Below are positions 1 through 9,491 of a stretch of DNA of 9,491 nt, in pieces (the first letter of the stretch is position 1; every line of letters begins with the position of its first letter). The notes beneath the pieces are model-generated. The model saw only the letters and a list, made by a program, of their open reading frames with translations, was not told the origin of the DNA and searched no databases. The translations under genes and the position numbers were made by a program. This DNA comes from a virus. Taxonomy: Duplodnaviria > Heunggongvirae > Uroviricota > Caudoviricetes. The stretch lies in IMG/VR virus record IMGVR_UViG_2547132272_000017, positions 1 to 9,491 of that record, one strand, 5' to 3'.

Positions 1-91
1 ACTCTCCAGGAAACCCGGGGCGGTTCAGTTGTTCCGCCTGTCGCAACATTTCCTGTGCCTGTTTACGTAATTGTTCAGGGGTAAAAGTCAT
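1..91 (-). CDS. Partial ORF (N-terminus only; continues past the left window edge), hypothetical protein
   Basis: ATG at 91..89 on the minus strand, 11 nt after the helicase stop (TGA, 105..103). Reverse complement of 1-91 is open and reads MTFTPEQLRKQAQEMLRQAEQLNRPGFPGE. No clear Shine-Dalgarno; only 30 codons visible. Confidence 0.25.
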   Translation of the reverse strand, partial: MTFTPEQLRKQAQEMLRQAEQLNRPGFPGE

Positions 92-102
92 TGTCTGGTT
101 GT

Positions 103-1494
103 TCAAAAGAAACGCTCCATCTTACTGCTGTCAGTTCGTTTGTTGCTGTATCTGCGCGGCTGAGGCTGCTGCATTGGGGTGGAAAGAATCTGTGCGCTTT
201 CCTGATCCACAGGCAGAAAATGTCCGTTATAAAAACGCCGATAAATCGTCCCCAGAGAACCGTTACGTTGTTTCGTGATATTGATTTCTGCGATGCCCCT
301 GGCCTGCGTATCCGGGTTGTACACTTCATCCCTGTAAAGCATCAGAATGATGTCTGCATCCGCCTCTATTTCTCCGGAATTTTTCAGGTCTGAGTTCATG
401 GGGCGTTTATTGGGCCTGGACTCCACACCGCGGGAGAGCTGACTCAGCGCAATCAACGGAAAACCACCGGATTTTGCCAGGCCTTTAAGCCCCTTTGAGA
501 TTTCACCAACGGCAAGGTCATGACGCCCTGTGGTTCGGGTTTTTATCAGCCCGAGATAATCAACCACCACCAGCGCCGTTTCCGGATGTTTAATCAGGTG
601 ATGTTTCGTTGTTGCGCATATCTCATCAATGGTCAGGTTCGCCTGGTCCACCATCCAGATATTGCGCCCGGTCATCCGCCCCACTCCTTGTGAGAAACGT
701 GCCCAGTCTTCGTCTTCAAAGTGAGTGACAGATTTCAGGCGTGATACCGGCATTCCTCCAGCCGCAGATACCATGCGTTCACCAATCTGGATGTTCGCCA
801 TTTCCATTGTGAACAGAAGAACACCATGCCCCTGCTCAGTCACCTTGTCGATGATATCCAGCGCCAGTTCGGTTTTGCCCATCGAAGGACGTGCAGCAAT
901 AAATACCAGGTCGCCAGGCTCCATGCCGCCCGTTTTTGCGTCCAGTTCATCAATACCGGTCATCAACGTCCTGGATTTCTCCAGCCCCTGATTCCGGCAT
1001 TCAACACGCTCAACCACTTCCGGAAGCACATCATCAATATGTACCGGCTGAATAACGCCCTTTTCCGTCGACAATGAGGCCATCATGTTCTGCGCATCCT
1101 TCAGAGCATCTTCAGCTGCTTCACAGGTATGCGCATCACGTAATTTCTGCAGCGCCTCATTCAGTGTTTTTTCTGCATCACGCAATGCGGCATTACGCCG
1201 CAACGCCGTAACATAGTGCTCCAGTGACGACTTCACCCAGGTTTTGCGCCCGGTATCAGTAATCACCGGGGCAAGTTCCGGCATCTCATTACACAACAGC
1301 ACAGGGTCAATCACGCCGGACACACGGGCCTGTCTGCAGATGCCTGTGTAGATATCCCGGTACGGTCGTACAGAAAAAACGTCCGCCGGTAGTGTGGCCA
1401 GAATATCCATCACTTCAGGATCTGCCCCTCGCAGAAAAAACGCGCCAATGACAGCGCCTTCCAGGTCATCGTTACGCCAGACAGGAGAAGTCAT
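103..1494 (-). CDS. DnaB-family replicative DNA helicase (phage-encoded)
   Basis: Long ORF with Walker A motif (ARPSMGKTELALD) and overall DnaB-like RecA-fold layout. Start placed at the ATG at 1494 (MTSPVWRND...), preceded by GGAGG and overlapping the upstream gene's stop as ATGA. The ORF track's start at 1533 is a TTG without an RBS. Confidence 0.85.
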   Translation of the reverse strand: MTSPVWRNDDLEGAVIGAFFLRGADPEVMDILATLPADVFSVRPYRDIYTGICRQARVSGVIDPVLLCNEMPELAPVITDTGRKTWVKSSLEHYVTALRRNAALRDAEKTLNEALQKLRDAHTCEAAEDALKDAQNMMASLSTEKGVIQPVHIDDVLPEVVERVECRNQGLEKSRTLMTGIDELDAKTGGMEPGDLVFIAARPSMGKTELALDIIDKVTEQGHGVLLFTMEMANIQIGERMVSAAGGMPVSRLKSVTHFEDEDWARFSQGVGRMTGRNIWMVDQANLTIDEICATTKHHLIKHPETALVVVDYLGLIKTRTTGRHDLAVGEISKGLKGLAKSGGFPLIALSQLSRGVESRPNKRPMNSDLKNSGEIEADADIILMLYRDEVYNPDTQARGIAEINITKQRNGSLGTIYRRFYNGHFLPVDQESAQILSTPMQQPQPRRYSNKRTDSSKMERFF

Positions 1495-2381
1495 GCTGCC
1501 ACACCTCCGATATGTGCACGGTAACTTTCCCAACCAAACACCAGGCAGTTACGCCCACCATCAGTAACGCGATCCACAATCCGTTCACCAATGGACTCCT
1601 TAAGTTGGTCAAATGTCAGATTACTAATCAAAATTGTCGGTAAAACGCTTTCGTAACGTGCATTGATGATTTCCTGCAGGATGGTTATCTCTGTTGGCGT
1701 ACCGAACTGCACACCAACCTCATCGATGATGAGCAGGTCCAGCGATACAAAATGGTCAATAACTTCATCTTCAGTGCGTTCAGAATTGTGACGCCAGGTA
1801 TTTTTCACAGCGCGGGTCAGTCGCATGACATCCGTAATTTCGACAGTCGCCAGGTGGTGGCGAATAATATTTTTTGCCATTGATACAGCCAGGTGATTTT
1901 TCCCGGTACCGCAATTGCCAATCATGATCATGCTGGTACCCGCAGCAAGACACTTCTCCCATGAACTGGCATAGCGCCGACAAGCCTCAAGATTTCTCTG
2001 TGCGTCAGCATTCACAGCCTGGTAGTTCTCAAACTCGCAGTCCTGGAAGCGGCGGGCAATACCAGCTCTGTCAAGTAATTCATGAACTTTCAGGATGCGT
2101 AACGCCTCCTGTACCTGATCCAGTTCATTCGCAATGCAGGTCGGGCAACCAGACACCCGTTTGATGGTTTCCCCACGAACATCTGGCCCTTTCAACACCA
2201 GACGTGTGTATTTCCCGTGTTTCTCACACTCAGCAGTTTCCTCGCTTGTCAGCCAGTGTTCACAGCGCCACGGACGCTTCCCGGCACGGGCAAACTGCAT
2301 CTCCTCCTCCAGTTCCGCCCTGCGGTTGAGCAATTGCGCTTTATCGTGTTGTGCGTAGTGTTTTTTTAACTGTTCAAACAT
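1491..2381 (-). CDS. DnaC/IstB-like AAA+ ATPase, putative helicase loader / replication protein
   Basis: Walker A (GNCGTGKNHLA) and Walker B (LLIIDEVG) motifs. Cys-rich N-terminal region (RCEHW, ECEKHG, GCPTC). SD GAGGTGA 7 nt upstream of the ATG at 2381. Stop overlaps the helicase start (ATGA). Confidence 0.8.
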   Translation of the reverse strand: MFEQLKKHYAQHDKAQLLNRRAELEEEMQFARAGKRPWRCEHWLTSEETAECEKHGKYTRLVLKGPDVRGETIKRVSGCPTCIANELDQVQEALRILKVHELLDRAGIARRFQDCEFENYQAVNADAQRNLEACRRYASSWEKCLAAGTSMIMIGNCGTGKNHLAVSMAKNIIRHHLATVEITDVMRLTRAVKNTWRHNSERTEDEVIDHFVSLDLLIIDEVGVQFGTPTEITILQEIINARYESVLPTILISNLTFDQLKESIGERIVDRVTDGGRNCLVFGWESYRAHIGGVAA

Positions 2382-2400
2382 TGTTCATCACCTCGAAAAA

Positions 2401-3378
2401 TCACCAGTTGAAGTTCGTTGAACCGTAGTCCTGCTCACTGAATCCCGAGATCGGGAGGCCGGTAGTTCGCCCACCTCCGGGAGCGGCTGGCTGTTGCCAG
2501 GATTCCTCGAAATGGCGATCGGGTCCAAAGAACGTCGCGGCCTGCTTCACGAACTGTGTGCCTGTATTTCCTGTAGCACGTACCCAGGCGGCATACCGCT
2601 TCACACCATCAAGCATGGTCTCCGGTTTTATTCCCTCCCTGATACGGGCTTTCCAGGCTTTGAAGGCTGCTGACTTGGAATTGCCACCAGCACGTTTGGG
2701 ATATTCCTGCCAGGCCTGTTCAAATTCCGGTGAATATTCCTGTCGGGCAGAACGCGCTGGTGCAGACGCGTCAGCGGATGCGCCAATAGTGTTTTTAGTC
2801 TCCGTTGTAATCTCTGTAGTAATCTCTGTATTTGTATCAACATTCGGCGTATCCCCTGTTCCGTTATGACGTTGGGGGGTGTTCCGTTTTAACGTAATAG
2901 CTGTATCGCTGATTGCGTTATTGCTGTTACTTTCTGGCGAAACAGAAGAAGGAGTAGTAATGGCAGCAATTGCCTGTGGGTTGATCCCGACAAACAAAAT
3001 ATTGCTGCATTTCACACCATCGAGCATTTCCACCGTGCGTAAATCCAGGGAAATAAACCCGGCATCACGAAGGCGCTTCAACGCATCCGCGGTTTCCCTT
3101 TTCCCGAAACCAAACTGCTCAGCAAACGCCTGATAACTTCTTTGCAGCTTGTCCCCCTGAAAACGCTTGCGATATCCCAGCAAAGCCCCGGTATGCTCAT
3201 CCCTGACTTCTGTCGGGCGGTACCAGTAAACGATCTCTGAGAGCAGGGCGATAGCGGTCGCATCCGGACGACCACTGGGTAGCCGAATATGTTTCCACCA
3301 GTTCGCTGGTGTGACATTGCCGGAAATATTAATTTGACCAATAGCTATAACTTCCGGTGTGGGGGCGTAACGACTCAT
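2401..3378 (-). CDS. Phage replication initiation / replisome-organiser protein (O-like)
   Basis: 325-aa ORF immediately upstream of the DnaC-like and DnaB-like genes, with a strong SD (AAGGAGG). N-terminal region resembles phage replisome-organiser proteins; a low-complexity linker (TEITTEITTE) separates it from a C-terminal domain. Assignment rests on position and architecture, not on a searched match. Confidence 0.6.
   Translation of the reverse strand: MSRYAPTPEVIAIGQINISGNVTPANWWKHIRLPSGRPDATAIALLSEIVYWYRPTEVRDEHTGALLGYRKRFQGDKLQRSYQAFAEQFGFGKRETADALKRLRDAGFISLDLRTVEMLDGVKCSNILFVGINPQAIAAITTPSSVSPESNSNNAISDTAITLKRNTPQRHNGTGDTPNVDTNTEITTEITTETKNTIGASADASAPARSARQEYSPEFEQAWQEYPKRAGGNSKSAAFKAWKARIREGIKPETMLDGVKRYAAWVRATGNTGTQFVKQAATFFGPDRHFEESWQQPAAPGGGRTTGLPISGFSEQDYGSTNFNW
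2807..2830. repeat. Perfect tandem 12-bp direct repeat (gtaatctctgta x2) inside the O-like gene
   Basis: Read directly: 2807-2818 and 2819-2830 are identical, followed by a partial third unit (tttgta). Encodes the TEITTEIT linker on the minus strand. Confidence 0.7.
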
Positions 3379-3674
3379 ACAGCCTCCTTACGCGGCATAA
3401 CAATGGTGTAACCCCGGGCAGGCTGGAGCCGGGCTTTTGCATCAATAGTGAGCGTTGCAATTTTTCGGATACGCAGATACCCTGCCCTTTCCAGGGTCAG
3501 GGTTTCTCTGAACATTGCCTGTTTTGAACAGCAACAAAAATCGGCAAGGACCTGGTGATCAATAACCCTCTCACCTTCACCGTCTGAAGAACCCGACATC
3601 AAAACACGCAACATAATCAGGCGCTGAATCGGATTATCGAAAACACTTCCGCATACAAACTGAAAACAGTTCAC
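3375..3674 (-). CDS. Hypothetical protein (99 aa, GTG start)
   Basis: GTG start at 3674 preceded by GGGAGG at good spacing. Start overlaps the upstream stop (GTGA) and the stop overlaps the O-like start (ATGA). The C-terminal half (QVLADFCCCSKQAMFRETLTLERAGYLRIRK) may be a winged-helix-like segment; this is unverified. Confidence 0.5.
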   Translation of the reverse strand: MNCFQFVCGSVFDNPIQRLIMLRVLMSGSSDGEGERVIDHQVLADFCCCSKQAMFRETLTLERAGYLRIRKIATLTIDAKARLQPARGYTIVMPRKEAV

Positions 3675-3895
3675 ACGGCACCTCCCAGGCGTTTAAACAT
3701 TTTTCCGGACTGAAACGCCACCAGTGGGTAACTGATGGTGTAGTTACGCCCCAGTAATTCACACACGACTTTCTGGCTTTCGGTACTGACCAGGCAAACC
3801 CGCAGAACATGGCCGTTGCTGGTGGCAAACCACTGCCCCACACGGGGGCAACGGTTGTATCGGTGATACAGGGAATTAACGACGCGGCGAATCAT
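3671..3895 (-). CDS. Hypothetical protein (74 aa; alternative start at 3910 would give 79 aa)
   Basis: ATG at 3895 overlaps the stop of the upstream 220-aa gene (ATGA), indicating translational coupling. No recognisable domain. Confidence 0.45.
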   Translation of the reverse strand: MIRRVVNSLYHRYNRCPRVGQWFATSNGHVLRVCLVSTESQKVVCELLGRNYTISYPLVAFQSGKMFKRLGGAV

Positions 3896-4554
3896 GGGCG
3901 CACTTCCCATTGATTACGGCGGAAAGCAGTGTGATTCAGGCTGGTTTCAGCCTCATGGAATGCTTCAATGCAGCTCTCGTAGTACCGCATTGTGCGCAGA
4001 CTTAACCCAAGCTGAAGCATCATCAGACCATCAAGGGTGATGTAATAACCACGCAGGGAATCGCCATACACGTGGTAAGTACCCGGAATGAAATTACGGG
4101 AGAAGAATTCACGTGAGCAGTTCAGATACTCGATTTTGTCGACGATGTTCTGGTGCATGCGCTTAAAGTGGCAGGCAACATGCAGGGAGAAAATAACAGC
4201 TTTGCCGTTGACGACTTCGATTTTCAGGTATGGGGAAGTTGGGACTGTAGCCATGATGGCAGCCTCCGTATGCAATGGATAACTTCCACCACCGGAAACG
4301 CCAATTTCACTGGTGGTGAACTGAACGGGGTTGGCGTAACCGGCGCATACGGAAACCGGCGCATCTTTCGATGCCCCCGCCCAGCCCACCATAATCTGGA
4401 TGTGAGCAAATGCGGACGATAAAAAAGACGCTGGCGCGTCGTATATCGCCGTATGCAATTCCAGGACGCCAATCCCGGCACCCGCTTTATAAGGTGCCAG
4501 AACAGTGTAACGTCCCGAAATTGCAGAATCAATATTTAGGCTTGAAACATTCAT
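3892..4554 (-). CDS. Hypothetical protein (220 aa)
   Basis: Longest ORF in this interval, on the same strand as the flanking operon; ORFs in other frames are shorter shadows. No clear SD upstream of the ATG at 4554 and no recognised motif. Confidence 0.55.
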   Translation of the reverse strand: MNVSSLNIDSAISGRYTVLAPYKAGAGIGVLELHTAIYDAPASFLSSAFAHIQIMVGWAGASKDAPVSVCAGYANPVQFTTSEIGVSGGGSYPLHTEAAIMATVPTSPYLKIEVVNGKAVIFSLHVACHFKRMHQNIVDKIEYLNCSREFFSRNFIPGTYHVYGDSLRGYYITLDGLMMLQLGLSLRTMRYYESCIEAFHEAETSLNHTAFRRNQWEVRP

Positions 4555-4631
4555 ATGCTTACTGGTATTTTTGTTGACGTTCTTGGATTCTTGGGCCTGC
4601 TTTATGCAGTTGCCTGTATCAACGTTGAGCG

Positions 4632-4657
4632 AGCCGGGTTACTACCCGGCTTTTTTT
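4632..4657 (+). terminator. Intrinsic terminator-type hairpin (8-bp GC-rich stem AGCCGGGT/ACCCGGCT, 4-nt loop) followed by T7 on the + strand
   Basis: Read directly: stem 4632-4639 / 4644-4651, T-run 4651-4657. Canonical for + strand transcription; on the minus strand it sits immediately after the Rha stop codon, preceded by an A-tract with no U-tract after it. Confidence 0.6.
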
Positions 4658-5388
4658 CACCGCTGCCAACCAATAACCTGAAATAACCCCATTTTCGGGT
4701 GATACCAGCGAGTCCCTCGCGGTTCTGCTTCCTCCATAACCCGATAAAAAGCAGCCATAAACGGTTCCACAGCAACAATTGCGCGACGTGACAACAATCC
4801 GTCCGGCGTCATGAACTCATGGGTGTCTGTAGGAATTTGATAGGCGTTCACCAGATTGCGGCATTTATCATCTGACAAACCGGTTTTTGCTTTCAGTTGG
4901 CGATATCCGGCATAGCCCTCACGAATGGTGCCCTTTTTGATTTGCTCAACTGTTTCGGCAACATGGCTGACTTTTTCTTCCACCTGAGTGATCCGTTTCT
5001 GCTGGCGAACAGCTTCAAGAGCCATCGCTGCAACCATTTCGATTTCGCTCATTGGCTTACGGATCTGTTCTTCCAGTTCGCGCCAGCGATCTACCAGGCG
5101 AGCAGTGAATTCAGGACAGAGCTGTGCGACGACAATGATGCTGTCGCGCTTACCTTGTTCTCCTTCAAACAGGTAATGCTCATATTGAACTTTAAAACCT
5201 AAGTTATTGATTCTTTCGGAAACCTCAATTTGAGGAGACCGGACAACGCCACCTTTGGCTAATGTTTCAATAGTGCGTTTCACATTGTCATGACGTTTAC
5301 CCACCAGCTCTGCGATTTCAACGCTGGTCATGGATACTTTGTCGTTAAAAATTGCAGCGTTCATTGTTGCCTCTTTACGAAAAACCAT
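4657..5388 (-). CDS. rha: Rha-family phage regulatory protein
   Basis: N-terminal signature SMTSVEIAELVGKRHDNVKRTIETL is typical of the Rha domain. Two candidate in-frame starts, ATG 5388 (SD AGAGG) and ATG 5364 (SD AAAGAGG); the longer is annotated. Confidence 0.8.
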   Translation of the reverse strand: MVFRKEATMNAAIFNDKVSMTSVEIAELVGKRHDNVKRTIETLAKGGVVRSPQIEVSERINNLGFKVQYEHYLFEGEQGKRDSIIVVAQLCPEFTARLVDRWRELEEQIRKPMSEIEMVAAMALEAVRQQKRITQVEEKVSHVAETVEQIKKGTIREGYAGYRQLKAKTGLSDDKCRNLVNAYQIPTDTHEFMTPDGLLSRRAIVAVEPFMAAFYRVMEEAEPRGTRWYHPKMGLFQVIGWQR

Positions 5389-5433
5389 GATTAACCTCTA
5401 GCTTTCCCCGTCTTTTCCGCACTTCTTGTACGG

Positions 5434-5442
5434 TGATATTAT
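5434..5442 (+). promoter_or_regulatory. Extended -10-like element TGaTATTAT, candidate promoter for the + strand gene at 5536
   Basis: Sequence TGATATTAT sits about 95 nt upstream of the ATG at 5536. The -35 is weak (tttccg). It lies in the 147-bp divergent spacer between the Rha start and the + strand gene. Confidence 0.3.
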
Positions 5443-5535
5443 TCAGTGCCGGATGCTTACCCGTGTCCGGCGCACGACCACACGTAGCCGCGTGTTGGTC
5501 TCCATTTTCAATTCAGCTCTCAATGGAGGATAAAA

Positions 5536-5781
5536 ATGTCAAATACCCAACATCTAAAAGCGGCGGATCCCGTTTTACGCCTCAATGCACTTGAAACGGT
5601 TGTTCGGGCGATGCTGTCGAGCATGACACCCGAGCAAATAAACAAAGCGCGATTGATTGCTACTCGTGGTGCCCAATTAGCAGCCCTAGATCCATTGCTC
5701 ACTCCTGCGAATCGCGAAGATGTAGAGCACATTCAGGGGATGGTTGATTATTTATTCGCCCATATTCCTGATCAGATTTGA
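5536..5781 (+). CDS. Hypothetical protein (81 aa), convergent with cro, inside the rightward early region
   Basis: Strong SD GGAGGA 5 nt before the ATG at 5536. Protein-like composition (MSNTQHLKAADPVLRLNALETVVRAML...). A hairpin plus T-rich tract lies downstream. The antisense ORF 5520..5732 has biased Ser/Ala/Arg content typical of a shadow frame. Confidence 0.55.
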   Translation: MSNTQHLKAADPVLRLNALETVVRAMLSSMTPEQINKARLIATRGAQLAALDPLLTPANREDVEHIQGMVDYLFAHIPDQI

Positions 5782-5813
5782 TTCTTTGAACCATAATTTC
5801 AGCGATACGAATG

Positions 5814-5844
5814 GCCGCCGCTTCGAGCCTGGCGGCTTCTTTAT
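5814..5844 (+). terminator. Hairpin (GCCGCC / GGCGGC stem, 11-nt loop) followed by TTCTTTAT, between convergent genes
   Basis: Stem 5814-5819 / 5831-5836 read directly, T-rich tract 5837-5844. Lies 33 nt after the + gene stop and 27 nt after the cro stop on the other strand. Confidence 0.4.
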
Positions 5845-5862
5845 CTGCATAAGAGCTACCCA

Positions 5863-6108
5863 TCACTTCTCGTCCTCTGTGTGCGCTAAGCTTGGGTGTG
5901 GAAAAAGCTCTGGTAGGTCTGGACGAAATTCATACGCTTGGATCTTTCCGTCGACAGCTGCAACCAATAACGGCACAAATTCTGGTGAAATCTTGTTCTT
6001 GCAGTTCAACCAATCGCAGACTGTTGACTGGGCCTTTCCGCATCGCTTGGCTAAGGCTTGCTGACTTCCAAGAATCTCAATAGCTTTCTCTATGGCTTTA
6101 TGTTTCAT
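5863..6108 (-). CDS. cro: Cro-like HTH regulator (YdaS-type)
   Basis: Divergent from the cI-like gene across the operator region. Pattern AIEKAIEILGSQQALAKRCGKAQSTVCDWL...EFRPD matches the YdaS/Cro-like HTH family. Start set at ATG 6108 (MKHKAIEK...) with SD AGGAGA; the ORF track's longer start lacks an RBS. Confidence 0.75.
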   Translation of the reverse strand: MKHKAIEKAIEILGSQQALAKRCGKAQSTVCDWLNCKNKISPEFVPLLVAAVDGKIQAYEFRPDLPELFPHPSLAHTEDEK

Positions 6109-6227
6109 AATCGCATCTCCTATTGAACGCATAATAACAACAGGAAAAGCGATATTCAACGTTAAACCTAGAACATTTATCGGAAAGCCGATAGACTAGC
6201 CAGGATAGAGAGGGGAGGAAAATCGCA
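6109..6227. promoter_or_regulatory. Divergent control region (OR analogue) between cro and cI, with operator-like sites
   Basis: 119-bp spacer between the divergent HTH genes. Contains the palindrome TATCGGAAAGCCGATA (6178-6193) and weaker related copies at 6109-6124 and 6139-6154 (core ATCG-N6-CGAT). Confidence 0.7.
6131..6159 (-). promoter_or_regulatory. PR-like sigma70 promoter for cro (-35 TTGAAT, 17-bp spacer, -10 TATTAT, minus strand)
   Basis: Minus-strand reading: -35 is the complement of 6154-6159, -10 the complement of 6131-6136. This leaves a leader of about 16 nt carrying the cro SD. Confidence 0.5.
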
Positions 6228-6920
6228 ATGACATTTTCAGAACGACTTGATTTAGCTATGCGCAACGCAAAATTTACGCAAGGTAGGCTGGCCAAAGAAG
6301 TGGGTATGGCTCAGTCCAGTGTCAATCAACTACTTAACAAAGCCAACGGTTCCAGAAAAACAGTCGAAATAGCAAAAGTTTTGGGCGTTAACCCGGAATG
6401 GCTCGCATCGGGTGTTGGCCCAATGGAAATCGTGACCTCTGCAGACTCACACCAAATACGTAACATTTCTGAAGATTGGGTTACTGATTCGTATGTCGTG
6501 GATGTTTTAGACATCAGATATAGTTGCGGACCTGGTAGTTATAACTCTGATTTTCCTGACATTGTCAGATCTATAGCGATAGAACCAGGATACGCATCAA
6601 GAGTTTTTGGCGGCAGGCCAGCATCAGCAATCAAAGCAATAAACGCCCACGGCGACAGTATGAAAGGCACAATAGACCCTGAAGACTTGGTATTTGTAGA
6701 TGTATCAGTTCGCACATTTAATGGTGATGGTATATACGCCTTTACATACTCTGGAACATCGCACATCAAAAGACTTCAAAAAATCAAAGATACTCTAACG
6801 GTGATATCTGACAACCCAGCTTACAAGGATTGGGCTATCGAACCGGAAGACTTCGAACAACTTCACATTGACGGAAAAGTAATTGTCAGTTGGCCCATGA
6901 CACTACACCGTTTTGCATAA
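6228..6920 (+). CDS. cI: CI-like prophage repressor: N-terminal HTH plus C-terminal LexA/S24-type autopeptidase
   Basis: HTH (FTQGRLAKEVGMAQSSVNQLL); S24 motifs GDSM with a Lys about 38 residues downstream (HIKRL); possible Ala-Gly-type cleavage region (LASGVG). SD GGAGG 10 nt upstream of the ATG. Confidence 0.9.
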   Translation: MTFSERLDLAMRNAKFTQGRLAKEVGMAQSSVNQLLNKANGSRKTVEIAKVLGVNPEWLASGVGPMEIVTSADSHQIRNISEDWVTDSYVVDVLDIRYSCGPGSYNSDFPDIVRSIAIEPGYASRVFGGRPASAIKAINAHGDSMKGTIDPEDLVFVDVSVRTFNGDGIYAFTYSGTSHIKRLQKIKDTLTVISDNPAYKDWAIEPEDFEQLHIDGKVIVSWPMTLHRFA

Positions 6921-6938
6921 GCAAAAATCATTTAACCC

Positions 6939-6964
6939 GCCCACTCTTAAGTGGGCTTTTTTTT
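6939..6964 (+). terminator. Rho-independent terminator after cI (stem GCCCACT / AGTGGGC, loop CTTA, T8)
   Basis: Read directly: stem 6939-6945 / 6950-6956, T-run 6957-6964, 19 nt after the cI stop. Confidence 0.8.
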
Positions 6965-6971
6965 GGAAAAA

Positions 6972-7012
6972 AATCGATAAACCGATTGACAGACAAAATC
7001 GGCAAACCTATT
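6972..7012. promoter_or_regulatory. Two operator-like sites (OL analogue) overlapping the PL-like promoter
   Basis: AATCGATAAACCGATT (6972-6987, overlaps the -35) and AATCGGCAAACCTATT (6997-7012, overlaps the -10) share the core ATCG-N6-C(G/T)AT with the OR palindrome. Centre-to-centre spacing is 25 bp. Confidence 0.55.
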
Positions 7013-7014
7013 AT
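6986..7014 (+). promoter_or_regulatory. Near-consensus sigma70 promoter (TTGACA, 17 bp, TATTAT): PL analogue
   Basis: -35 TTGACA at 6986-6991, 17-bp spacer, -10 TATTAT at 7009-7014; about 50 nt upstream of the ATG at 7064. Confidence 0.7.
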
Positions 7015-7063
7015 CATGGCATAGGTATCGAACTCACCAAAGCAATTATAGAGGATGAGAAAA

Positions 7064-7561
7064 ATGTCATCGTATATGGGGTTACCAACAAATCAGCACG
7101 ATGCTCTTGAGAATATTCAACTCTTAGTAGGGGCTGGTGCACTACTGTATAGCAGCAATAATCCTGAGTTAATTGAACTTGCCAGCTCCATCCTGGCTGT
7201 AACTCAAAAATACAGCCTCACCGCGTCGCGTTTATGCAAACAAAATTTAGCTATTAATTCCCAGAATCGGATTCGCACCCAACGCGAAGCCTGCGGCTTA
7301 ACAACCGCCGAACTCGCCAGGCTGCTCGATCTCGATGAAGAAATTATCATCCAGTGGGAGAGCGGAGAGTATGAACCAACTATCAGTATGCTTATCCCAC
7401 TGGCAAATATTCTTGGCTGCGATCCGATGTGGCTGTTAACTGGCGAAGTTACTCCTCCGGAGCAACCAAAAAGTGAGGAGCAGCAACACCATGACGCATC
7501 TCAACAAGTTTGCTCCTTATCTCGCGAAGCTCTTCTACGGAAGAACCAATACCAATGGTGA
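7064..7561 (+). CDS. XRE-family HTH protein with an uncharacterised N-terminal region (166 aa); first gene of the leftward operon
   Basis: SD GAGGA 8 nt before the ATG at 7064. HTH_XRE signature in the C-terminal half (IRTQREACGLTTAELARLLDLDEEIIIQWESGEYEPTISMLIPLANILG). No Arg-rich N-type motif. Confidence 0.7.
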   Translation: MSSYMGLPTNQHDALENIQLLVGAGALLYSSNNPELIELASSILAVTQKYSLTASRLCKQNLAINSQNRIRTQREACGLTTAELARLLDLDEEIIIQWESGEYEPTISMLIPLANILGCDPMWLLTGEVTPPEQPKSEEQQHHDASQQVCSLSREALLRKNQYQW

Positions 7562-7689
7562 CATAATCGCCGCTTCGCCCCTCAAGGTACATGCGAACAT
7601 TTTTATCAATCATTGCGGAAACAGTCTCAATATGAAAACACTTCTGAGACTCGCTATATAGCAGAACATATAAGTCAGCTGAGGAAGCC

Positions 7690-8055
7690 ATGAAAAAGTT
7701 CGAAAACATAACTGTTCTCCATGTTGATGACTTTGATTATACAAACCCGGAACCTCTCCCGGAGGTTGTAAAGGCAATAGATGTTGCCGATATAGTGATT
7801 AGAGGAAAGAGAATTGTCAAAAACAGGCTCGCATGCACTTCAGGAGCAATGACAAAAACAACCTCACAACAAGATGATTATGAAGGCATTTGTCTGGAGC
7901 CGGACTCATTTGCGGTAAATGTTTATCATTTATTGCATGCAACACAGGTATTACATATGTCCAGTAATCACGAAACAAAAACACTTGGCAGCGAAATTCT
8001 GAATTTTGCATGTGAATATGCAAAAGCTGCTGCCGAAAAAGAATTAGCGCAATAA
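7690..8055 (+). CDS. Hypothetical protein (121 aa)
   Basis: ATG at 7690 preceded by GAGGA. AT-rich codon usage matching the neighbouring + strand genes. No recognised motif. Confidence 0.6.
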   Translation: MKKFENITVLHVDDFDYTNPEPLPEVVKAIDVADIVIRGKRIVKNRLACTSGAMTKTTSQQDDYEGICLEPDSFAVNVYHLLHATQVLHMSSNHETKTLGSEILNFACEYAKAAAEKELAQ

Positions 8056-8253
8056 CAACAAATATGCCATGAACGTTTATTACGGTTTTATCGCCGGGGA
8101 TTGTTGCAACCTTTATTCATAGAGGTAACTCAGTTATGACTTTCCTGAAAAATAAGGCATCGTATAAAACTGCCTGCCTCATTGCACAACATGGAGATTC
8201 TTATCTTCATATAGCCAACCTGTATTTGCGCAAAGCATATGGGAGATAAATAA

Positions 8254-8442
8254 ATGAAAGAAAAACAACAGAACATAACACATGAAAAAGTAAGAGTGTT
8301 GTTGACCATTGAAAATGGGAAAGTGATTTACTCAAAACATCTGTCGGATGATGAATTCGTTGGCTGCATGGATACATTTCTGTGGATGGTAAAAAGAGCG
8401 GGTTACACGATTATTCCACCAGCAAAGGAACAAACATTATGA
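8254..8442 (+). CDS. Hypothetical small protein (62 aa), translationally coupled to the downstream gene
   Basis: SD GGGAGA 7 nt before the ATG at 8254. Stop TGA overlaps the next ATG (ATGA at 8439-8442). Confidence 0.55.
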   Translation: MKEKQQNITHEKVRVLLTIENGKVIYSKHLSDDEFVGCMDTFLWMVKRAGYTIIPPAKEQTL

Positions 8443-9020
8443 ATTATTCAGAGTTCCGACCAGAAGTTACGCCACATGGCATAAAAATTGGCAATACAAC
8501 CATTGATTATGTTGAGGCCGTACAGCGACTTAATGATGGTGAATACGATTATCCAAACTCACACGGTTTAAGAATCATGCAATGTATTGCTGAAGCCGAT
8601 GATGCAGGGTTGCTGGGACGATTTTCAGTCGATATGAAAGTTGCTCAATGGCGATGGCTGTATGTGACTACGTTTATAAATGAAGAGAAAGACAAGAACG
8701 GTACCGTTGATATCCCTAACGATAATGGAACTACAGATCGCGCAGTTATTTACAAGGGGAAACATGGTTGCCTGAGTATCTACCCCGGACCACTTCGCAT
8801 TGCCCTGCAAAACCATGTCGAATGGGGATTTATTGAAAAATATGGCGAAGCTGAAGGCATGGGGCGAGTTCTGTTTCTCTATCAAAAAATGCTCATCGCA
8901 GATCCTGATAATGGTTTCATTATCTCTGCTATGGGGCGCGAAGGGCTTGAACTCCTTCTGGATGAAATGATTCACGATCTGAATACTCATGGTATGCCAG
9001 AAGCGCCAGTGACACATTAA
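8439..9020 (+). CDS. Hypothetical protein (193 aa)
   Basis: ATG at 8439 with SD AAGGAA 8 nt upstream and ATGA overlap with the 62-aa gene. The ORF track's longer form starts at a GTG (8382) with no RBS. Soluble-looking, no recognised catalytic motif. Confidence 0.65.
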   Translation: MNYSEFRPEVTPHGIKIGNTTIDYVEAVQRLNDGEYDYPNSHGLRIMQCIAEADDAGLLGRFSVDMKVAQWRWLYVTTFINEEKDKNGTVDIPNDNGTTDRAVIYKGKHGCLSIYPGPLRIALQNHVEWGFIEKYGEAEGMGRVLFLYQKMLIADPDNGFIISAMGREGLELLLDEMIHDLNTHGMPEAPVTH

Positions 9021-9027
9021 ATATTAA

Positions 9028-9052
9028 GAAGAATATAATTCTTCCGTTTTTT
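9028..9052 (+). terminator. Candidate intrinsic terminator (AT-rich 7-bp stem GAAGAAT / ATTCTTC, loop ATA, T6)
   Basis: Read directly, 8 nt after the stop of the 193-aa gene. The stem is weak (two G-C pairs), so efficiency is uncertain. Confidence 0.45.
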
Positions 9053-9065
9053 ACTAACCGTTTAT

Positions 9066-9173
9066 ATGAAAAGCAACCGTGAATTAAGCAGAGTAAAACT
9101 GATTTTAATCCTTGCCACAGTGCTGACACTAACTGAAATCATTATTCTCTTTATTGCGCTGTCAGTCGGTTAA
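9066..9173 (+). CDS. Candidate small hydrophobic peptide (35 aa, single predicted transmembrane helix)
   Basis: ATG at 9066; MKSNRELSRVK followed by a hydrophobic stretch (LILILATVLTLTEIIILFIALSV). No SD; below the ORF-track size cutoff. Confidence 0.25.
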   Translation: MKSNRELSRVKLILILATVLTLTEIIILFIALSVG

Positions 9174-9196
9174 AAATATCGGGATACCACAGACCA

Positions 9197-9385
9197 ATGA
9201 GACTGTATTTCACAATAGTAATTTTACTGGCAATTATCGCATGCATTTACGGATTACTCGTTCCGTTCCTTATATCCATGAAGGATACGATAGCAGTTAT
9301 TTCTGGCTTTGCACTGGCGTTTCTGACCCCGCCCTGCATTTATGCCATTTACAAGGGTCTTTCTTTCACTAAGGATAAAAGATGA
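9197..9385 (+). CDS. Small membrane protein (62 aa, two predicted transmembrane segments, charged C-terminus)
   Basis: Hydrophobic segments FTIVILLAIIACIYGLLVPFLI and IAVISGFALAFLTPPCIYAIY. Weak SD. Stop overlaps the next ATG (ATGA). Confidence 0.5.
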   Translation: MRLYFTIVILLAIIACIYGLLVPFLISMKDTIAVISGFALAFLTPPCIYAIYKGLSFTKDKR

Positions 9386-9477
9386 AAAAAATTATTTTTG
9401 CTTTAGCCATTGTTCTGCCGACTATTGGCCTTGTCGGTTGCGATCGCGTTGAACCAGGTAATGGCTTTGTTGAATAA
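9382..9477 (+). CDS. Tiny putative lipoprotein precursor (31 aa; signal peptide plus lipobox LVGC)
   Basis: SD AAGGA 6 nt before the ATG at 9382. MKKIIFALAIVLPTIGLVG|CDRVEPGNGFVE: n-region, h-region and lipobox Cys at residue 20. ATGA-coupled to the upstream membrane-protein ORF. Confidence 0.4.
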   Translation: MKKIIFALAIVLPTIGLVGCDRVEPGNGFVE

Positions 9478-9491
9478 ATCGAACTTTTGCT

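Follow-up and report, generated by a model that had tools for sequence, protein, structure and literature searches.

An overlapping pair of early genes in a phiP27-like prophage: obligate module or separable accessory genes?

Does a stop codon that overlaps the next start codon mark two phage genes as partners? The question is raised by a gene pair in a 9,491-nucleotide stretch of viral DNA (IMG/VR record IMGVR_UViG_2547132272_000017, positions 1 to 9,491; hereafter the window), which we identify from its sequence as part of a phiP27-like lambdoid prophage, covering its immunity and early region. A small gene encoding 62 amino acids and a large gene encoding 193 share the tetranucleotide ATGA, and a first-pass annotation had read this layout as typical of a two-component module such as a toxin–antitoxin (TA) pair. 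That reading, in its obligate form, does not hold: start/stop overlaps are commonplace in the prophage, the junction between the two genes varies, and each gene is found alone. We favour, with a probability of roughly 0.6, the explanation that the pair comprises independent accessory early genes whose products bind host or phage partners.

Starts, reading frames and selection in the gene pair

The pair and its translation signals are as follows.

8254–8442, plus strand: small gene, 62 amino acids, ATG at 8254 and TGA at 8440–8442 (direct reading)
8439–9020, plus strand: large gene, 193 amino acids, ATG at 8439 and TAA at 9018–9020 (direct reading)
8439–8442, plus strand: ATGA start/stop overlap of the small and large genes (direct reading)
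8241–8245, plus strand: Shine–Dalgarno (SD) sequence of the small gene, GGGAG, 8 nt 5′ of its ATG (direct reading)
8425–8429, plus strand: SD sequence of the large gene, AAGGA, 9 nt 5′ of ATG 8439 and within the small-gene coding sequence (CDS)

Direct reading thus recovered both gene calls of the first-pass annotation, together with the overlap and one SD sequence per gene. The Prokaryotic Genome Annotation Pipeline (PGAP) agrees: in Escherichia coli UMNF18, which shows 100% identity to the window over positions 8200–9100, it calls the same two CDS, as hypothetical proteins. The SD sequence of the large gene is kept as AAGGA/AAGGAG or GAGGA in phiP27-type and Shiga toxin (Stx)-type lineages. 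In the phiP27 record itself the homologues are L07 (small) and L06 (large), to which the window products are 90–91% identical, and L06 was started at an upstream GTG to give a protein of 212 amino acids.

The choice of start matters, and the first-pass annotation had pointed out that a large gene beginning at GTG 8382 would overlap the small gene extensively instead of being coupled to it. Several observations speak against that start. It has no SD sequence; the GTG is absent in the close relative L136; and in L137 the upstream frame stays open for only 6 codons, in every Stx-type lineage for only 4. ATG 8439 and its SD sequence, by comparison, are present in all 31 distinct upstream contexts compared. 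Across the intervening 57-nt stretch it is the small-gene frame that is maintained (pN/pS, the ratio of non-synonymous to synonymous polymorphism, 0.38), and the C-terminus of the small protein, LWMAKRAGYTIIPPAKEQTL, is almost invariant; substitutions accumulate freely in the extension frame (pN/pS 0.69), which is interrupted by a stop in one lineage. Large homologues of many genera also start at the same methionine. On these SD, frame and substitution data, we place the start of the large gene at ATG 8439 and not at GTG 8382.

With GTG 8382 rejected, the genes couple rather than overlap extensively. The layout of translational coupling is present, with a stop/start overlap and a downstream SD sequence inside the upstream CDS; the overlap is compatible with coupling by termination and reinitiation, and some translational coupling probably occurs. 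Both are real coding genes, each under purifying selection: pairwise dN/dS (ratio of non-synonymous to synonymous substitution rates) came to 0.175 among 28 distinct small-gene sequences and to 0.187 among 46 distinct large-gene sequences.

Junctions, co-occurrence and probable early transcription of the pair

Tight junctions are a general feature of this kind of operon. In the UMNF18 prophage as annotated by PGAP, an overlap of 1 or 4 nt occurs at 8 of the 19 junctions between same-strand genes, and within the window a second ATGA joins the gene for a 62-amino-acid membrane protein to a gene of the SPFH family. To describe the small/large junction we surveyed 91 loci with a large homologue, 86 of which have a small homologue upstream. 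The ATGA overlap was seen in 53 and a 5-nt spacer in 28, both arrangements being compatible with reinitiation. Two loci, Stx2_EH2201 and Stx2_EH1846, have a 14-nt overlap; in these the C-terminal part of the small protein diverges from the family through an apparent frameshift, and the large gene is intact. Three more place the genes ~600 nt apart with an intervening gene, and the remaining five have no small gene.

Conservation of the pairing, which the first-pass annotation had proposed as a check on its module, turned out to be local: adjacency is confined to Escherichia phiP27/Stx-type phages. Of the 80 viral contigs with the nearest large homologues (≥67% identity, all Escherichia-type), the small gene lies directly upstream in 79. 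Elsewhere a 140-amino-acid gene parts the small homologue (83 amino acids) from the large gene in Citrobacter, the two lie ~1.7 kb apart in Klebsiella phages, and other genes stand between them in CharmingMan and phi467. Species-level representatives of 15 other taxa gave 16 large-gene loci, with a small homologue in 6 and an adjacent one in none. Loci with a large gene and no small gene come from Morganella, Yersinia, Pantoea, Providencia, Proteus, Tatumella and Paenochrobactrum and from the P4-like element L011. Conversely, 26 of 80 small-anchored viral loci have no large gene within 3 kb; such small genes are found in many Salmonella, Citrobacter and Enterobacter prophages, sometimes as two tandem paralogues. 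Even within the phiP27 lineage the alleles are only loosely associated, identities of the small and large genes to the window alleles being weakly correlated (r 0.25, 47 distinct pairs). Discordant combinations such as 100%/91.7% and 79%/95.9% (small/large) point to recombination between the two genes.

These data bear directly on the idea of a classical type II TA system, in which the small protein would be the antitoxin, the 193-amino-acid large protein the toxin, and translational coupling would set their stoichiometry. The layout is that of such a system: adjacent, co-oriented genes with an ATGA overlap and no intervening signal. However, strict co-occurrence fails, because the putative toxin is present without the putative antitoxin in many genera, and in Stx2_EH2201 and Stx2_EH1846 the large gene stays intact beside a small gene whose C-terminal part has diverged. 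The large protein belongs to no recognised toxin fold or family, the small protein has no ribbon-helix-helix (RHH), helix-turn-helix (HTH), AbrB or Phd-type DNA-binding domain, and the pair has no dedicated promoter, lying mid-operon under an early promoter. Since the overlap is ordinary phage packing and the genes occur separately, the pair is not an obligate TA-type pair, and we regard a type II system as highly improbable.

A prophage TA system of similar placement is known. In the cryptic prophage CP-933P, paaR2–paaA2–parE2 forms a three-component TA system with a ParE toxin, co-transcribed with a CI-like repressor and with demonstrated addiction (PMC8630535). Like the window pair, it sets a small gene before a larger one, near the immunity region of a lambdoid prophage and on the strand of the repressor (PMC8630535), and the related cassettes of other genera described below likewise contain a ParE-like gene. 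The window differs in having a terminator, a promoter and three genes between cI and the pair; neither protein matched ParE or PaaA2, and the two genes are separable.

What the pair does share with its neighbours is a predicted transcription unit, whose candidate signals are listed here.

6228–6920, plus strand: cI repressor of the LexA/S24 type (Pfam Peptidase_S24 and HTH matches)
6939–6956, plus strand: intrinsic terminator 3′ of cI, a 7-bp stem with 5 GC pairs, GCCCACTCTTAAGTGGGC then TTTTTTTT
6986–7014, plus strand: near-consensus sigma-70 promoter, TTGACA-17-TATTAT, with 11/12 matches, the best in the region
9028–9053, plus strand: weak AU-rich hairpin and U-run 3′ of the pair, a leaky terminator at best

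The promoter begins 30 nt past the cI terminator. Together, positions 6939–7014 likely form the boundary between lysogenic cI transcription and early-left transcription, and from its position after the cI terminator the promoter at 6986–7014 is likely of the PL type. A repeat scan found no operator repeats common to the promoter area and the cI–cro intergenic region. Downstream of the promoter follow, in order, an HTH gene, orf121, orf37, the pair, small membrane genes and the SPFH gene; in the UMNF18 prophage the operon goes on with DUF5406, DUF4222, xis and int and adjoins a DUF72 gene. The pair accordingly sits between the immunity repressor and xis–int, on the same strand as int, in UMNF18, phiP27 and Stx phages alike. 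A consensus-based scan found no promoter-like site between orf37 and the small gene, the nearest strong promoter being 1.2 kb upstream. After the pair, the weak terminator reported by the first-pass annotation is there: a 7-bp hairpin at 9028–9044 with two G–C pairs (−4.9 kcal/mol, z −1.85), followed by the U-run CCGUUUUUU. It was too weak to be listed by our terminator scan.

The explanation we favour builds on this arrangement. Transcription from the promoter at 6986–7014 would run through the HTH gene, orf121 and orf37 into the pair and on through the small membrane genes, the SPFH gene, xis and int; by sharing early-left transcription, the pair would thus be made early after induction or infection, and not in the lysogen. 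The ATGA would reflect the usual tight packing of an operon, with ordinary reinitiation, and would not be the mark of a dedicated two-component machine. Both products would bind host or phage proteins early in lytic development, in host takeover, counter-defence or switch regulation.

Phage lambda offers the natural comparison, its PL operon containing the non-essential accessory genes of the ‘ea’/b-region. These likewise occupy the interval from repressor to xis–int, on the int strand and 3′ of a repressor-proximal promoter, and they are likewise short, tightly packed and often overlapping open reading frames (ORFs) of mosaic distribution and mostly unknown function. The likeness is one of position and organization: the pair has no sequence or fold relationship to characterised lambda PL genes, and the part of the operon in the window, unlike the lambda PL operon, is without exo/bet/gam-type genes.

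Core domain, wider cassette and candidate partners

If the genes are separable, what do the proteins themselves indicate? Both window proteins are direct members of families that are already catalogued, together with phiP27 L07/L06, and that carry no functional annotation. The large protein belongs to phrog_1515 (E 1.4e-92 over residues 1–193; entry ‘unknown function’), a family of 139 clusters at 50% identity whose members nearly all stand alone at 190–220 amino acids. It is soluble and acidic (21.8 kDa, isoelectric point (pI) 4.9), with no hydrophobic or transmembrane segment. The AlphaFold2 model is confident (predicted local distance difference test (pLDDT) 90.4, predicted template modelling score (pTM) 0.85) and begins with three short strands and three helices, which lead into a three-stranded sheet, two further helices, a hairpin and, last, a long helix. 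Its parts map to the gene as follows.

8439–8627, plus strand: N-terminal extension of the large protein, residues 1–63, with three short strands and two helices; absent from phrog_1737 paralogues
8628–8990, plus strand: core domain, residues 64–184, homologous to stand-alone phrog_1737 proteins of 118–121 amino acids
8991–9020, plus strand: C-terminal tail, residues 185–193 (GMPEAPVTH), and the stop codon

Comparison of 49 divergent members showed near-invariance at mostly structural positions (G34, W73, F79, G88, Y105, Y148 and G166) and at a few charged ones (D37, R72, R120 and E128). H193 is kept in at least 90% of the same members and ends a conserved G-[MIL]-P-x-x-P-x-x-H tail; residues 189–193 have a pLDDT below 50, and these last five residues are probably disordered. 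No catalytic motif was recognisable in the large protein.

Database searches were consistent with the earlier statement that neither protein contains a familiar motif. Against Pfam, NCBIfam and PADLOC, the two proteins matched no toxin, antitoxin, enzyme or defence-system family, nor any other entry. The remote-homology search that the first-pass annotation suggested was run as profile searches against PDB sequences and matched neither protein: profiles of the large, small and phrog_1737 families and a single ParE-like sequence gave nothing below E 0.03. Foldseek of the large model against BFVD gave nothing at E 0.001 or better. The predicted fold is a confident one without a convincing counterpart among solved structures. 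A literature search by accessions, locus tags and PHROG identifiers found nothing.

Some existing labels are at odds with these results. Klebsiella phage records (H102–H107) name their large homologues ‘2-polyprenylphenol hydroxylase related flavodoxin oxidoreductase’, for which we found no profile or fold support and which is probably a propagated mis-annotation. A PF17345 tag on one large homologue and the name ‘DUF5375’ on one phrog_1737 cluster member were not reproduced with current Pfam.

A new relationship emerged from the hidden Markov model of the large family, which also matched ORFs of ~115–121 amino acids, among them ~115-amino-acid ORFs in Yersinia, Rahnella and Pantoea loci. Aligned with hhalign, a phrog_1737 alignment of twelve proteins matched the large alignment at 96.3% probability (E 2e-9, 106 columns) over residues 64–184. 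By this profile match, residues 64–184 of the large protein are homologous to the phrog_1737 family, so the large protein amounts to a phrog_1737-type core extended by 63 residues at its N-terminus and by a tail at its C-terminus. The phrog_1737 proteins, also of ‘unknown function’, share with the large protein the ~120-amino-acid core, the operon and a place beside the small gene; they differ in lacking the N-terminal extension and the conserved P-x-x-P-x-x-H tail, and in sitting upstream of the small gene, whereas the large gene sits downstream of it. The orf121 product of the window was considered as a phrog_1737 homologue and rejected (hhalign probability 0.3%).

The small protein is a member of phrog_340 (E 1.3e-24 over residues 2–61; entry ‘unknown function’), a family of at least 272 clusters at 90% identity found in Escherichia, Citrobacter, Salmonella, Enterobacter, Klebsiella, Raoultella, Leclercia and Buttiauxella. 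It is soluble (pI 7.9) with no hydrophobic or transmembrane segment, and its predicted structure consists of a beta-hairpin at residues 14–30, a helix at 39–48 and a proline-rich C-terminal tail (pLDDT 80). We found no match to HTH, RHH, AbrB or Phd DNA-binding domains, and in PDB searches its sequence did not resemble PaaA2, ParD or Phd. We also considered whether the small protein resembles the first 63 residues of the large protein, with which it has L-x-D-x-E-[FY] ... AG in common, as expected of a Rosetta-stone fusion; hhalign gave a probability of 0.4–1.8% with small alignments of 21 and of 102 sequences. With no segment of the large protein detectably homologous to the small one, there is no Rosetta-stone fusion.

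The two families meet in a longer arrangement. Many Enterobacterales prophages carry a long syntenic cassette that opens with orf37, a 73-amino-acid gene and a 121-amino-acid phrog_1737 gene, continues with the small gene, a ParE-like gene and a 140-amino-acid gene, and closes with the large gene and an antirepressor-like gene. Its ParE-like member matches Pfam PF24732 (E 1.3e-19); no such gene is present in the window. In 79 phrog_1737-anchored viral loci, the order phrog_1737–small–ParE-like was found 51 times, with the large gene added downstream in 9 more and two small copies in a further 6; 11 loci had phrog_1737 and ParE-like genes without a small gene, and 2 had phrog_1737 and the small gene only. 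As a separate observation, the cassette in Salmonella, Citrobacter, Enterobacter and Klebsiella comprises the 121-amino-acid phrog_1737 gene, one or two phrog_340 genes, a ParE-like gene of 73–75 amino acids and a gene of 74 or 140 amino acids. Examples are given by locus.

L012, 3417–4627; also L199, L221 and L241: cassette with reading frames overlapping throughout
L005, 5591–6427; L195, 4091–4834; L196, 4073–4780; L197, 3540–4286; L008, 4168–5001: large homologue flanked by an antirepressor-like gene

The second line illustrates a recurrent association outside the phiP27/Stx lineage, where an antirepressor-like gene of the Bro-N, ORF6N or Rha family repeatedly lies beside the large homologue, at a gap of 8–12 nt or, in Morganella, with a 1-nt overlap. 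The only Rha-family gene of the window (4657–5388) lies on the strand opposite to the pair. The small protein gave weak matches only to the C-terminal parts of anti-repressor PHROGs (phrog_4792, E 0.0014; phrog_2379, E 0.0045), and a search of the Bro-N, ORF6N and Rha proteins beside large homologues for a small-like domain gave no hit, even with filters off.

Under the accessory-gene explanation, the arrangement in the window would be a derived remnant of the long cassette: the intervening genes would have gone in the Escherichia phiP27/Stx lineage, so that the small gene came to abut the large one, and this lineage would keep orf37, small and large from a mosaic block whose members come and go. 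The long form is taken as ancestral because of its wider taxonomic spread.

Several points weigh against this explanation. The signals assigned as promoter and terminator are no more than consensus matches. The direction from a long ancestral to a short derived form is a parsimony argument across genera, and the early-acting binding role is deduced from the lack of catalytic motifs and the operon position. Most directly, 92 of 94 distinct small sequences adjoin a core-domain gene, or a tandem small paralogue that does, and one of the two exceptions is a truncated contig. The core-domain gene lies upstream when it is phrog_1737 and downstream when it is the large gene; wherever no large gene follows the small gene, a phrog_1737 gene is immediately upstream. 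Adjacency of small and core-domain genes may therefore mean more than synteny.

Because the small gene is nearly always beside a core domain, a looser partnership stays alive. In such a module the small phrog_340 protein would regulate, adapt or inhibit the core domain shared by phrog_1515 and phrog_1737, the order (core–small or small–large) would vary by lineage, and core-domain proteins could also work alone. The homology of phrog_1737 to large residues 64–184, the tight start/stop junctions in both gene orders, the near-universal adjacency and the small gene in 79 of the 80 closest large-anchored loci all fit. The effective sample, however, is tiny, as only two or three independent architectures lie behind the counts, and synteny with paralogy could yield them. 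At least 16 fetched loci, as well as the 11 of 79 phrog_1737-anchored loci above, have a core-domain gene but no small gene; the alleles of the small and large genes recombine freely; and no homology or fusion between the two proteins was detected. We regard this reading as rather unlikely.

Another candidate partner is the ParE-like toxin itself (PF24732), in which case the toxin would have been lost here and the small gene would be an orphan antitoxin or anti-addiction gene. The phrog_1737–small–ParE-like order in 66 of the 79 phrog_1737-anchored loci, the strength of the Pfam ParE_like match, the overlap of the small and ParE-like reading frames, and the ParE-like gene that directly follows 51 of 94 distinct small sequences speak for such a partnership. 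Yet phrog_1737 directly precedes the ParE-like gene without a small gene in 11 of the 79 loci, the ParE-like gene is truncated or absent in some small-bearing loci, and the small protein shows no similarity to PaaA2, ParD or Phd. In addition, the small gene is under purifying selection in ~66 distinct Escherichia pair sequences that have no ParE-like gene. On balance this partnership is distinctly unlikely.

A combination of these ideas is unlikely too: phrog_340, the core proteins (phrog_1737 and phrog_1515) and, in most genera, the ParE-like toxin might together form an undescribed multi-component module of the early operon. One possibility is a toxin-based phage switch or counter-defence device in which the core binds or neutralises the toxin and the small protein modulates it. 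Such a role would fit the weak structural resemblance of the core domain to antitoxin toxin-binding domains; the toxin-binding domain of Xre/MbcA/ParS-like antitoxins (DUF2384; PDB 8qnl_A, 6fkg_D, 8gug_C) is among its nearest known counterparts. Were such a module real, the window would hold a reduced, small-plus-large version of it.

Whichever of these explanations applies, the genes are widespread. Of 5,426 complete E. coli genomes, 160 (~3%) carry DNA homologous to the pair region, as do phiP27 and many Stx1/Stx2-converting phages, and the wider cassette is frequent in prophages of Salmonella, Citrobacter, Klebsiella and Enterobacter. The pair thus represents abundant, selected and uncharacterised early genes of medically relevant temperate phages. 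Current understanding is not overturned, given that the coupled-pair layout is ordinary and the families are already catalogued in PHROG. The added interest is modest and lies in the domain relationship, the ParE-like cassette and a fold that is modelled with confidence but has no counterpart among solved structures. For experiments, the phrog_1737-type core with its extension, the small gene that tracks the core and the ParE-like gene of the cassette provide handles.

Neighbouring genes and the ends of the operon

On the minus strand, the window encodes DnaB-type and DnaC-type replication genes, the Rha-family regulator and a cro-like gene. Its best complete-genome match as a whole is 96% identical over 92% of its length. 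The gene directly before the pair is a cassette member in its own right.

8136–8249, plus strand: orf37, a 37-amino-acid micro-gene, MTFLKNKASYKTACLIAQHGDSYLHIANLYLRKAYGR, whose stop lies 4 nt 5′ of the small-gene ATG

Homologues of orf37 were found in 253 of 276 fetched loci, across genera, the widest conservation of any cassette member, and its pN/pS is 0.24 in frame compared with 0.86 and 2.3 off-frame. It is annotated in Stx phage records, was not called by PGAP in UMNF18, and has no PHROG or Pfam match. Upstream of it, orf121 (7690–8055, plus strand) encodes 121 amino acids in the window and in phiP27. The UMNF18 version (L004, 11491–11856) diverges after ~110 codons, PGAP calling a 68-amino-acid CDS only, and Stx phages retain only the C-terminal 66 amino acids.

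Between the large gene and the gene for the 62-amino-acid membrane protein lies an unlisted hydrophobic ORF of 35 amino acids (9066–9173, plus strand), MKSNRELSRVKLILILATVLTLTEIIILFIALSVG. It is intact in 99 fetched loci, with a pN/pS of 0.34 in frame and of at least 1 out of frame, and may form a small membrane module with the membrane protein (phrog_1130) and the SPFH gene.

The SPFH gene, which starts at 9382, is broken by a mobile element. Positions 9463–9491 (plus strand) are the left end of insertion sequence IS903B (IS5 family), 29 bases starting with the inverted repeat GGCTTTGTTGAATAAATC, and otherwise collinear prophages stop aligning at 9463. The 31-mer of this IS903B end is found at >13,000 plasmid sites, directly 5′ of the IS903B transposase gene.

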